Below, piece by piece: positions 1,510 through 20,904 of a stretch of 21,732 nucleotides of DNA. The stretch is taken from positions 1 to 21,732 of IMG/VR virus record IMGVR_UViG_2663763286_000005; one strand, 5' to 3'. A program made the translations under genes and the position numbers. This DNA is from a virus. Lineage: Duplodnaviria; Heunggongvirae; Uroviricota; Caudoviricetes. The stretch's first letter is position 1. Every line of letters starts with the position of its first letter. Under the pieces are notes generated by a model, which was not told the origin of the DNA, ran no database searches, and worked only from the letters and a program-made list of their open reading frames with translations.

Positions 1510-1935
1510 GCACAACAGGTAAGAGCATTGAACCCGCAGACCTCGCGGAATTGGTGAAAGGTGCCGCGCAGTGCTCTTATCGTTGTGGTGAAGCTCAATG
1601 GCGAGCTAGCAGATAGGCGATAGTGAAAATACTAGTCATGTAGCTGACCGCCGCGCGTACTGCAATCGGCAGCGCACCGATGGAAGCCGGTTCGATTCCG
1701 GCCGCCACAACCCAAACTGAGCCGTAGCCACTGGCTGTCCTGAATTCATCAGTGATGGTTATGCTGCGGCCTTCTACACATGACCTTCGTGAAAGCGGGT
1801 GGCATGAGGTTGCGCTAACAACCTCCTGCCGTTTTGCCCGTGCATATCGGTCACGAACAAATCTGATTACTAAACACAGTAGCCTGGATTTGTTCTATCA
1901 GTAATCGACCTTATTCCTAATTAAATAGAGCAAAT

Positions 1936-3679: not shown

Positions 3680-3965
3680 CCATTACAAAGCCTATCTACG
3701 GGTGGGCTTGATAATGAAACCAGAGTTTATTCTTGGCAACCAGTTACGGCAGTACAGCGAAACAACCCAAGCCAGTAAGTGGGGAAATAACACTGGCAGC
3801 CACTGAAAGATGAACCCCCTGCCTTATGGCAAAAAAGATTCTTTGTGGTGGCGGACTGATGGAAAGACATCGGATAGAATAAAACAGTGGCTAGGGTAGC
3901 TCCCGAAAAGCGGAATCGTCACCGCCAGCCACTGAATCTATGACGAACAACTAGACGAGGTTGAT

Positions 3966-20836: not shown

Positions 20837-20904
20837 AGTTGAAGCCCCAACTGCGGGAACAGTCAGGGCTTCGGTATCAACAAATCGGATTAGGAAATAT
20901 TGAC

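Follow-up and report, generated by a model that had tools for sequence, protein, structure and literature searches.

Positions 1582-1711 of the window (the whole 21,732-nucleotide stretch of DNA that was analysed, from a virus of the Caudoviricetes; IMG/VR record IMGVR_UViG_2663763286_000005) probably encode an intact, processed, trans-acting tRNA-shaped RNA, which is preceded by an upstream frame at 1511-1581 (the motif CACAAC and a hairpin, H1). In RNAfold, the + strand of this segment adopts a complete five-arm cloverleaf of ~130 nt. The predicted structure is tRNA-shaped and is shown to present a self-complementary hexamer in the apical loop of its fifth arm, and its D and T arms are able to form a tRNA elbow. 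The element has apparently not been described before: a literature search by keyword and by sequence string returned no description of it. The Fremin 2023 catalogue mentions a candidate RNA that is at times named tRNA-Arg. The locus comprises, from 5' to 3':

1425-1454, + strand: late promoter pR' (TTGACA-18-CATAAT), 11/12 in a consensus scan, with homology to pR' as annotated in HK75 and Sf6
1464-1505, + strand: tR' terminator hairpin with U run, equivalent to the annotated Tr' of HK75 (325-366 of locus L001)
1511-1516, + strand: CACAAC, the 5' frame element, with the same letters as the end of the 3' acceptor strand
1518-1581, + strand: hairpin H1 (RNAfold), with a 13-bp base GGUAAGAGCAUUG/CAGUGCUCUUAUC
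1582-1590, + strand: 5' strand of the acceptor stem, GUUGUGGUG, predicted to form 9 bp with 1703-1711
1592-1607, + strand: D arm AGCUC-AAUGGC-GAGCU, the loop of which (AAUGGC, 1597-1602) contains GG
1609-1663, + strand: extra (fifth) arm of 55 nt, placed after the D arm and before the anticodon-like arm
1631-1636, + strand: palindromic hexamer ACUAGU, central in the apical loop and putatively the site of kissing-loop dimerisation
1665-1681, + strand: anticodon-like arm AUCGG-CAGCGCA-CCGAU, loop pattern N-A-(G/U)-C-G-C-A
1682-1685, + strand: variable region GGAA, 4 nt (GGGA in some variants of the alignment)
1686-1702, + strand: T arm GCCGG-UUCGAUU-CCGGC, with the loop UUCGAUU at 1691-1697
1703-1711, + strand: 3' acceptor strand, CGCCACAAC; CCA comes directly after it, at 1712-1714
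1706-1955, + strand: lambda-type S leader (lambda homology), the downstream boundary of the slot

The features that build the elbow of a tRNA are present in the element and near-invariant among 25 representatives: a T loop of the form UUCRANY and a D loop containing GG. The sequence GGTTCGANTCC occurs once in the window, versus 0.00 occurrences expected from 100 shuffles. Canonical tRNAs have 73-93 nt, four arms and a 7-bp acceptor stem, whereas the element has five arms, ~130 nt and 9 bp. Its anticodon-like loop carries A33 and C37 in place of U33 and a purine at 37; A33, C35, G36, C37 and A38 are invariant across variants, and position 34 is G or U. The anticodon-like arm is of the Arg type and, with A33 and C37, presumably non-decoding.

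An earlier, sequence-only reading had recognised several of these parts. The T stem-loop (gccgg-ttcgatt-ccggc, 1686-1702), the 3' acceptor strand cgccaca at 1703-1709, its complement tgtggtg at 1584-1590 and the 5-bp stem atcgg/ccgat at 1665-1681, which closes the 7-nt loop cagcgca, are all present, and U33 is indeed missing, with A at position 33. The supposed lack of a D arm was an error: agctc-aatggc-gagct, with the G18-G19 doublet, lies at 1592-1607, two bases past the 5' acceptor strand. The spacing of ~126 nt between the acceptor strands was given correctly, but it is no sign of decay, since the 55-nt extra arm (1609-1663) accounts for the gap. The same reading took the segment for a tRNA remnant marking a recombination junction. 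Its kinship with tRNAs and the coincidence of its 3' edge with the start of lambda homology hold; its decay is contradicted by five intact helices, compensatory changes, conservation in unrelated phages and the agreement of RNAalifold. That alignments might instead reveal a conserved element had been allowed for, and they do.

Conservation of the fold is most evident from the 25 representatives, for which RNAalifold arrives independently at the same consensus structure. Pair positions are paired in 97.5% of cases, versus 85.2% after shuffling and 29-47% after sliding. In this alignment of modest diversity, in which many sequences are >90% identical (effective sequence number of the model, 1.23), double-sided (compensatory) changes occur in 19 of the 35 pairs, and none of 500 shuffles matches on all five measures. 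Such changes are found at 5/9 pairs of the acceptor stem, at 3/4 and 4/4 pairs of the two extra-arm helices and at 3/5 pairs of the T stem, which is 100% paired; the anticodon-like stem covaries as well (AUUGG/CCAAU, AUAGG/CCUAU, ACCGG/CCGGU). Part of the acceptor-stem conservation may stem from the frame rather than from the RNA, because lambda possesses the frame stems without tRNA-like cargo. The D arm is near-invariant (99.2% paired, no covariation); owing to their invariance, the D stem and the greater part of the anticodon-like loop are structurally uninformative either way. Several positions of the + strand fold are occupied by G-U pairs, which would be A-C mismatches on the opposite strand, and the fold therefore belongs to the + strand. 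A covariance model, R1, assigns 118-163 bits to family members (among them BIS08P22, from outside the seed) and 12-30 bits to ordinary tRNAs, and has no match to the lambda leader cargo.

These data bear on the notion of a decayed tRNA pseudogene at a recombination junction, for which the real tRNAs in the slot of Sf6-type phages, the 3' edge at the start of lambda homology and the missing U33 might be taken to speak. Helix loss, lack of compensatory selection and sporadic occurrence, by which pseudogenes are recognised, are not seen in the element: every helix is intact, 19/35 pairs show compensatory changes and 79-100% identity is kept among relatives across unrelated phages and three genomic contexts. 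In addition, the alignment reveals no sequence similarity to the Sf6 tRNAs. Such a pseudogene is thus highly improbable.

In the extra arm, the helix at the base (GCAG/CUGC) is separated from the upper helix by a conserved internal loop (AUA / GCGCGUA), and the arm is capped by an apical loop of ~18 nt. The centre of this loop is a 6-nt palindrome in each of the 31 different long arms (128 instances; 100% self-complementary). It occurs in five versions (ACUAGU, UCUAGA, GCUAGC, UCGCGA and ACCGGU) and is self-complementary in all 24 aligned representatives; the locus L150 has a short extra arm, from which the palindrome is absent. The palindromes, from which alone the dimer is deduced, suggest that two copies of the RNA pair via a kissing-loop homodimer. 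As in the HIV-1 dimerisation initiation site, a 6-nt self-complementary sequence resides in an apical loop beside a few unpaired purines, and the palindrome of the element is maintained through paired changes, as expected of kissing-loop sequences; the resemblance is a functional analogy and not one of sequence family. Unlike the HIV-1 site, the palindrome of the element is mounted on a tRNA-like body, and its dimer is putative. Kissing-loop dimers or homo-oligomers are also formed by phi29 pRNA and by ROOL, GOLLD and OLE RNAs (PMC12286853).

Two further pairings of the arm were considered and rejected: a pseudoknot joining GCGC of the anticodon-like loop to GCGCG of the internal loop, in which G34U and G79A are uncompensated (judged by eye on the alignment), and an interaction of the apical loop with the CUAG that is invariant where the D arm meets the extra arm, as the UCGCGA and ACCGGU variants retain the junction CUAG. 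A version of the element devoid of the arm was found neither in IMG/VR nor in 50,697 phage records. A pattern with a short D-to-anticodon gap yielded only chance matches in coding DNA of IMG/VR, and BLAST with the in-silico spliced core always returned split matches spanning ~130 nt.

Standard tools largely overlook the element. The sequence-only reading had reckoned with a complete tRNA being called here; default ARAGORN reports no gene in the window, and one RefSeq record has a 127-nt tRNA-Arg. ARAGORN likewise makes no call on the element in HK75, Akira, Skate, gmqsjt-1, ST1UNAM and PdC23. Its relaxed and intron modes gave inconsistent calls on 1570-1730 (a tRNA-Ala with a 38-nt 'intron'; a reverse-strand tRNA-Arg(tcg)), which were discarded as noise. 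After deletion of the extra arm (1609-1664) in silico, default ARAGORN returns a tRNA-Arg(gcg), a 76-nt four-arm cloverleaf drawn with an 8-bp acceptor followed by C and CCA. Annotation in public genomes is inconsistent (nothing, tRNA-Arg, partial tRNA-Ser or spurious CDSs), and only one of the 164 element-carrying E. coli genomes in RefSeq labels the 127-nt stretch, as tRNA-Arg.

A decoding, aminoacylated tRNA-Arg(GCG/UCG), the 55-nt arm of which would be an intron or a tolerated expansion, could explain that annotation of exactly 127 nt, the ARAGORN call after arm deletion, the G or U at position 34 with fixed C35 and G36, as in Arg isoacceptors, and the CCA that directly follows the acceptor in the window. 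We nevertheless regard it as quite improbable. Decoding tRNAs carry U33 and a purine at 37, whereas A33 and C37 are invariant here; default ARAGORN is silent at every locus examined, and the Rfam tRNA model (RF00005) stays below its gathering score. Outside the lambda-type flank, in the other contexts, the CCA is not kept, and the D loop lacks a conserved A20, in E. coli the main identity element for ArgRS. The extra arm, moreover, is under structural selection, is never missing from the element in the collections searched and is below the size of a group I intron; bacteria are not known to have a splicing endonuclease. A tRNA containing a group I intron was also rejected, for which an insertion in the anticodon loop and a fold of >200 nt were required: the 55-nt insertion follows the D arm and precedes the anticodon-like stem, and no Rfam intron model matches the element.

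A cmscan of the whole window and of six loci with the element or a variant of it matches no Rfam 15 family to the element at gathering score. At E <= 10, the region 1400-2000 contains just chance matches and T-arm fragments of tmRNA models, the latter at sub-threshold scores (16 bits vs 84; 11.8 vs 47). The element resembles the tRNA-like domain of tmRNA in its T arm and 3' acceptor strand, the source of these sole sub-threshold matches; unlike tmRNA, it combines a D arm with an anticodon-like arm and lacks both an mRNA-like reading frame and pseudoknots. A tmRNA was ruled out, as ARAGORN reports none and the Rfam match covers the T arm alone, below gathering score.

The slot occupied by the element is bounded by conserved sequence on both sides. 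The terminator tR' is the final shared segment 5' of the slot, and identity to Sf6 stops at 1510. On the 3' side, 1706-1960 of the window is 96.9% identical to lambda 44936-45190, in keeping with the lambda S leader that the earlier reading placed from ~1706. That reading was also right about tRNA genes in this position of related phages: tRNA-Asn and tRNA-Thr lie exactly there in Sf6. The contents of the slot are swapped between phages, with tRNA-Asn/tRNA-Thr(UGU) in Sf6 and other cargo in lambda. Canonical tRNAs that follow tR' and precede the lysis or stx genes are known from Sf6 and phage 21 (tRNA-Asn/tRNA-Thr(UGU)) and from 933W (ileZ-argN-argO). The element shares with them the slot, the strand, the order of acceptor, D, anticodon and T arms, the canonical T loop and the D-loop GG; it differs from them in its 55-nt fifth arm, its 9-bp acceptor and A33/C37, and in being missed by ARAGORN and the Rfam tRNA model.

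The frame is more widespread than this cargo. CACAAC is kept in lambda, HK629, CUS-3, ep3 and Skate/Akira-type phages, of which CUS-3, HK629 and ep3 carry a second class of cargo; when the isolated unit is folded with RNAfold, CACAAC (1511-1516) pairs with GUUGUG (1582-1587), a predicted pairing that could lengthen H1 to ~20 bp. A CACAAC direct repeat brackets the unit of H1 plus cargo, the CUS-3 record annotates 'boundary sequences' on both sides of the corresponding region, and homing endonuclease genes are frequent neighbours of the element.

An element acting at the level of DNA (a recombination boundary, a target of homing or attachment or a palindrome bound by protein), with an incidental RNA fold, would accommodate the annotated boundaries of CUS-3, the repeat on both sides of H1 plus cargo, the nearby homing endonuclease genes and the palindromic hexamers, which could equally be protein or restriction sites. 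This is hardly to be believed, however, given that G-U pairs are tolerated in the + strand reading only, that compensatory changes across six separate helices are unexpected for DNA sites and that D and T loops of the tRNA type are conserved.

The element is carried by 164 of 5,426 complete E. coli genomes, 92 phage records, 72 to 93 IMG/VR contigs and 39 metagenomic contigs; >100 of the contigs are independent. Among species-representative genomes, there were two matches, one of them real, and the element is therefore not a core bacterial gene. Three genomic contexts are found: (i) the lambdoid late leader, as in HK75 and the window; (ii) the N leader, immediately 5' of an N-type antiterminator gene (Pfam PF25694, E = 4.7e-24), where the copies are placed on a 19-22-bp supporting stem, a homologue of the hairpin in the lambda N leader, and stop ~20 nt before the N ribosome-binding site; (iii) a + strand island with tRNA-Met/Ile/Arg amid - strand tail genes (Akira, Skate, gmqsjt-1). 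In virulent Salmonella and Pantoea phages, the element adjoins real tRNAs, and the copies of the virulent Salmonella phages are 92-95% identical. Mobility of the element between unrelated phage contexts is documented. No neighbouring protein gene is conserved across the contexts, which argues for a self-contained trans-acting RNA.

Two of the three contexts are leaders of long operons, and it may be asked whether the element acts in cis, as a processing or regulatory signal for the downstream operon (N or late genes) rather than as a free RNA. It might set the 5' end, stability or translation of the message, as an entry site for RNase P or RNase III or by protein binding akin to the thrS operator. 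The N-leader subfamily, on its lambda-like hairpin stem ~20 nt from the N ribosome-binding site, is compatible with such a role, as is the presence of the same frame with different cargo in lambda. The lambda N-leader hairpin is reportedly processed by RNase III and controls N translation, and sites of RNase III processing are also reported for the lambda late leader (Daniels et al. 1988, cited in PMC7547250). Against a cis-acting leader element, the copies in virulent Salmonella phages are antisense to the flanking tail genes and have no downstream mRNA to regulate, >240 nt separate the copy in the window from S, and a mere processing site needs neither an invariant anticodon-like loop nor a conserved internal loop nor a covarying palindrome. 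On balance, we consider action in cis unlikely.

The favoured trans-acting, tRNA-shaped RNA could arise and function in the following manner: The element would be transcribed within the Q-dependent late leader or, in other phages, from the pL/N leader or a small stable-RNA island beside tRNAs. Host enzymes may then excise it, possibly by RNase III cleavage at the long flanking stems and/or by RNase P and 3' trimming of the tRNA-like end. The stable RNA would accumulate and presumably form the kissing-loop homodimer. It may act in trans as a tRNA mimic, binding a host or defence protein that normally recognises tRNA, most plausibly as a decoy against a tRNA-targeting factor; this form is favoured because the same slot of sister phages carries tRNAs of the counter-defence type. 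We would suggest only tentatively that the element represents an undescribed class of phage non-coding RNA, a leader- or island-released, five-armed, dimerising mimic serving as decoy or inhibitor, most attractively of an antiphage tRNA nuclease.

It has lately become clear that phage tRNAs counter tRNA-cleaving defences (PARIS, retron-Eco7, P2-OLD), and a phage tRNA-Thr(UGU) rescues P2-OLD toxicity (PMC12445682). If the RNA is a mimic, the counter-defence idea would widen from replacement tRNAs to RNA decoys, and the candidate would be easy to delete in phages that are tractable, such as HK75, Skate, Akira and P22-like prophages. If it is a decoy, the cargo slots of leader hairpins would be hot-spots of RNA-based counter-defence, alongside the counter-defence tRNAs of the same slot. 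A match to the P2-OLD cleavage motif was considered and dropped: CGG is located at 29-31 instead of 28-30, and position 37 is C instead of A.

Two other phage-encoded or tRNA-mimicking RNAs invite comparison. YrlA, a bacterial Y RNA of which some copies are phage-encoded, ends in a Ro-binding stem that replaces the anticodon stem. The element similarly mimics a tRNA elbow (D and T arms) in a non-coding RNA; unlike in YrlA, its ends make an acceptor stem and the anticodon-like arm is kept. No rsr (Ro60) gene is found near the element, and there is no Rfam match. The T4 'species 1 and 2' RNAs (rnaC/rnaD) are stable RNAs of ~120-140 nt from a tRNA cluster, the tRNA-like termini of which allow tRNA enzymes to process them. 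Compared by description, they share with the element phage origin, similar size and proximity to tRNA genes; their descriptions mention no five-arm cloverleaf with a palindromic loop, and a sequence relationship is not expected.

The closest parallels to the surroundings of the element are the lambda leaders themselves. N-leader copies are built on the same frame stem as the lambda N leader (GGCUUUGGGGUGUG.../...CACACCACCAAAGC), and late-leader copies on the CACAAC-H1-GUUGUG...CACAAC frame of the lambda late leader; the lambda stem tips, in contrast, carry unrelated sequence that is not tRNA-like. The N-leader and late-leader hairpins of lambda hence appear as frames with exchangeable structured RNAs at their tips, which reopens the question of leader roles beyond RNase III control. 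As for H1, its base stem is retained via compensatory changes in three loci (L087, L047 and L152), its tip (1531-1568) is exchangeable, with at least 15 different tips, and the tip occurs alone, at ~93% identity, in other phages.

The T-arm sequence downstream of Q belongs to a conserved RNA, encoded on the + strand, whose fold is intact and includes a tRNA elbow. The sequence-only reading had placed its pieces correctly: the T arm (1686-1702), the strand cgccaca (1703-1709), the stem atcgg/ccgat (1665-1681) and tgtggtg (1584-1590). It had also noted the lack of a U33, and position 33 is an A in every variant compared. Its denial of a D arm is contradicted by AGCUC-AAUGGC-GAGCU, which carries a GG doublet and lies at 1592-1607, 2 bases past the 5' acceptor strand; the wide spacing of the acceptor strands is due to a 55-nt extra arm (1609-1663) that fills the gap. 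The surrounding window is a lambdoid prophage segment (P22/Sf6/HK620-like) with the following features:

start of window: end of a NinG-like gene
267-938: Ser/Thr phosphatase
929-1447: Q antiterminator
1425-1454: pR', by homology with the annotated HK75 and Sf6 records
1464-1505: tR' hairpin and U run, by homology with the same records
between Q and S: non-coding stretch of 509 nt
1582-1711, + strand: the tRNA-like element
1956-2279: lambda-type S, with R and then Rz downstream

Elsewhere in the window, Rfam finds at gathering score sar RNA, the P22-type immI antisense RNA (20837-20903, - strand, 71.6 bits), and int-alpA RNA (3884-3946, + strand, 42 bits).

A single copy of the T-loop motif GGTTCGANTCC is present in the window, against 0.00 expected from shuffles. 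RNAfold of 1584-1712 yields a five-arm cloverleaf and, when upstream sequence is added, also a 13-bp hairpin, H1 (1518-1581), and a 9-bp acceptor. Pairs were counted on the five-arm structure in 25 representatives more than 3 edits apart: standard pairs fill 97.5% of cells, against 85.2% in the shuffled control and 29-47% in a slid control, in which the 3' partners were moved by 1-3 columns. Double-sided changes occur at 19 of the 35 pairs, and none of 500 shuffles matched the observed value on all five measures. Kinship among sequences can by itself beat the shuffle control; as the sole cause of the covariation it is unlikely, given how the slid controls behave and how many different pair types occur. 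Unguided RNAalifold gives the identical structure for the 25 representatives, and the fold is assigned to the + strand because G-U pairs at several positions fit that strand only. The RNA structure of the element is thus under selection. Its arms, with their covarying pairs, are:

acceptor: 5 of 9
D stem: none, nearly invariant
extra arm, base helix (GCAG/CUGC in the window): 3 of 4
extra arm, asymmetric, conserved internal loop: AUA / GCGCGUA
extra arm, upper helix (~9 bp): 4 of 4
extra arm, apical loop: ~18 nt
anticodon-like stem: 2 of 5
T stem: 3 of 5

R1, a covariance model built on these representatives, scores family members at 118-163 bits, including the sole copy in the window (1579-1713, 163 bits); P22-like phage BIS08P22, outside the seed, reaches 133 bits and ordinary tRNAs 12-30 bits.

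A search for a complete tRNA with ARAGORN called neither tRNA nor tmRNA in the window, and the element has no Rfam 15 match at gathering score; at E <= 10 the T arm alone touches tmRNA models. When 1609-1664 is deleted in silico, the remaining 76 nt are called tRNA-Arg(gcg) by ARAGORN at default settings and drawn with an 8-bp acceptor, discriminator C and an encoded CCA. This CCA belongs to the lambda-type flank and is missing in other contexts. The anticodon-like loop reads N-A-(G/U)-C-G-C-A, variable at positions 32 and 34, with A33, C35, G36, C37 and A38 invariant among the variants compared. Decoding tRNAs characteristically have U33 and a purine at 37; with A33 and C37, this loop resembles an Arg-type recognition surface unable to decode. 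Among the 164 RefSeq E. coli genomes with the element, one has a tRNA-Arg with precisely the bounds 1584-1710 (127 nt); of the remaining 163, most carry no annotation there and a few have a hypothetical-protein CDS over it. Annotation is likewise inconsistent across NZ_CM160040.1, PQ186186.1, ON470589.1, MH321493.1 and NZ_CM129853.1: vB_CECAV_048 carries a 58-nt partial 'tRNA-Ser', a 'polyubiquitin-A' CDS covers the element in vB_EcoP-611R6, 'hypothetical protein' CDSs do so in Skate and in several E. coli genomes, and most records leave the element unannotated. A literature search by keywords and sequence strings found no paper describing the element; a large-scale listing of putative structured RNAs from viruses mentions a candidate at times called tRNA-Arg. 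We regard the element as a variant of phage tRNA-like non-coding RNA, a kind already known; its points of interest are the fifth arm, the dimerisation signature and its position at the apex of well-known hairpins in the lambda leaders. A tRNA-shaped sequence of ~149 nt on another viral contig (L086:798-946; normal D and T arms, ACCA end, ~75-nt insertion past the D arm, 21.6 bits with R1) may be an independent instance of an expanded tRNA-like RNA.

No arm-less version was found in IMG/VR or the phage collection, which makes the fifth arm an inherent part of the family; in the single short form (locus L150), the base helix and internal loop are retained. All 31 distinct long arms (128 instances) carry a central 6-nt palindrome in the apical loop, in the versions ACUAGU, UCUAGA, GCUAGC, UCGCGA and ACCGGU. 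The hexamer cannot pair with itself intramolecularly, and nowhere else in the RNA is there a second copy that covaries with it; most simply read, apical loops would form an intermolecular kissing-loop homodimer. The layout, a palindrome between a few unpaired purines, is that of the HIV-1 dimerisation site. Loop flanks UGAA...AGUA, present in many variants, resemble by eye a loop E/bulged-G motif; for the invariant internal loop, no partner was identified.

When the Q-S regions were aligned (window, HK75, Sf6 and CUS-3), all four proved identical up to the end of tR' and again from ~1706; the near-identity to the lambda S leader named in the sequence-only reading is borne out (96.9% between 1706-1960 and lambda 44936-45190). 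The slot holds the module of the window in HK75 and tRNA-Asn plus tRNA-Thr(UGU) in Sf6; CUS-3 has CACAAC, H1 and GUUGUGGUGAA...CCGCCACAAC in common, with a different, longer interior. Lambda too has the frame: past tR', it reads CACAAC-A-GGTAAGAGCATTG...CCAGTGCTCTTTCC-GTTGTGCTG-AA-[66 nt]-CAGCACAAC-CCAAACTGAGCC, and a G-to-C change in its closing stem is compensated on the opposite strand. The junction proposed earlier is therefore real, and stands as the edge of a cassette slot, not as a scar. Within the frame, GUUGUG (1582-1587) is contested by a 5' CACAAC (1511-1516) and a 3' CACAAC (1706-1711); the H1 unit folded by itself reaches ~20 bp, and in context the acceptor stem wins. This competition may reflect switching between folds, a substrate for RNase III or the trace of recombination.

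Other cargoes were seen as well. The lambda frame CACAAC-H1-GUUGUG...CACAAC (L154:386-545, lambda 44785-44944) encloses a 66-nt non-tRNA cargo, found again within the H1 tip of Salmonella phage ST1UNAM; cargo modules can therefore nest in either stem. A second class, set in the same frame (GUUGUGGUG-AA...CCACAAC), occurs in CUS-3 (L003:443-660), ep3 (L110:772-917), HK629 (L111:775-900) and EC.P3 (L112:751-875). It has a D-like hairpin, UGCGCA-GGCUGA-UGCGCG, with a covarying stem, a T-like hairpin, CCGG-AGUUCAGCA-CCGG, and a variable interior; the complementary loops GCUGA and UCAGC suggest a Watson-Crick 'elbow'. R1 matches neither the CUS-3/HK629/ep3 cargo nor that of lambda. The H1 tip itself (1531-1568) is a module ~93% identical in unrelated phages (ep3, LPSTLL, D10, 64795_sal3 and an Acinetobacter-labelled record), and could form a predicted small pseudoknot (CCGC/GCGG and ACCU/AGGU).

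BLAST of 1508-1715 against 50,697 phage records resolved two independent modules, the tRNA-like part (1569-1711) and H1, which also recurs by itself. The former is 92-95% identical in the virulent-type Salmonella siphophages Akira, Skate, INT55, PSH-1 and the seszw series, ~81% in gmqsjt-1 and ST1UNAM, and 79% in Pantoea phage PdC23. Pattern scans found the element in 72 to 93 IMG/VR contigs and 39 metagenome contigs, and essentially not in a species-representative genome collection; 164 of 5,426 complete E. coli genomes carry it, chromosomally in all. It is mobile between three transcribed, non-coding contexts, and no protein neighbour is conserved. Besides the Q-S slot, these are (i) a non-coding gap amid - strand tail genes in Akira, Skate and gmqsjt-1, where the element lies on the + strand ~100 nt 5' of genuine tRNA genes (Met, Ile, Arg), an arrangement that amounts to a small stable-RNA island; and (ii) the pL leader of BIS08P22 and loci L013, L016, L029, L069, L079 and L096, where an N-type antiterminator gene (Pfam PF25694, E = 4.7e-24 and 1.1e-11) follows with its ribosome-binding site immediately 3' of the element. 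There, it tops a 19-22-bp stem which, from comparison of lambda (ATTCAAAGCAGAAGGCTTTGGGGTGTGTG...CACACACCACCAAAGCTAACTGACAGGAGAAT) with L096 (ATTCAAAGCAGAAAGCTTTGGTGAGTGGTG...CACCACTCAACCAAAGCTAACTGACAGGAGAAT), is plainly homologous to the lambda N-leader hairpin. That hairpin is reported to be the RNase III site controlling N translation (Kameyama et al. 1991; Wilson et al. 2002), and Daniels et al. in 1988 (cited in PMC7547250) reportedly located sites for RNase III in the late leader of lambda. Immediately 5' of the Skate island (L005:2298-2370, + strand), the sigma-70-like promoter matches TTGACA-17-TAGATT and TTGGCT-17-TATAGT are consistent with a dedicated stable-RNA transcription unit, but their number (2) does not stand out from the shuffle expectation of 1.4.

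The RNA may be excised from leader transcripts by RNase III cutting the long stems that flank it, by RNase P cutting the tRNA-like end, or by both; it would then build up as a dimer and act in trans as a tRNA mimic aimed at a tRNA-recognising protein. The main rival, a cis-acting processing or regulatory signal within leaders, agrees with the N-leader context and is at odds with the tRNA islands of virulent phages. For the trans-acting mimic, a counter-defence role is an idea prompted by location, as the slot holds tRNA-Thr(UGU) in Sf6-type phages: P2-OLD cuts the anticodon arm off host tRNA-Thr(UGU), and phage tRNA-Thr(UGU) rescues the cells (PMC12445682). The element does not match the published P2-OLD motif, and no specific target can therefore be named. 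A 4-bp anticodon stem with a G27-A43 mismatch is reported for P2-OLD-resistant phage tRNA-Thr (PMC12445682); by eye, the Sf6 tRNA-Thr (UGU; L002:451-526) has a G27-A43 mismatch that leaves a 4-bp anticodon stem.
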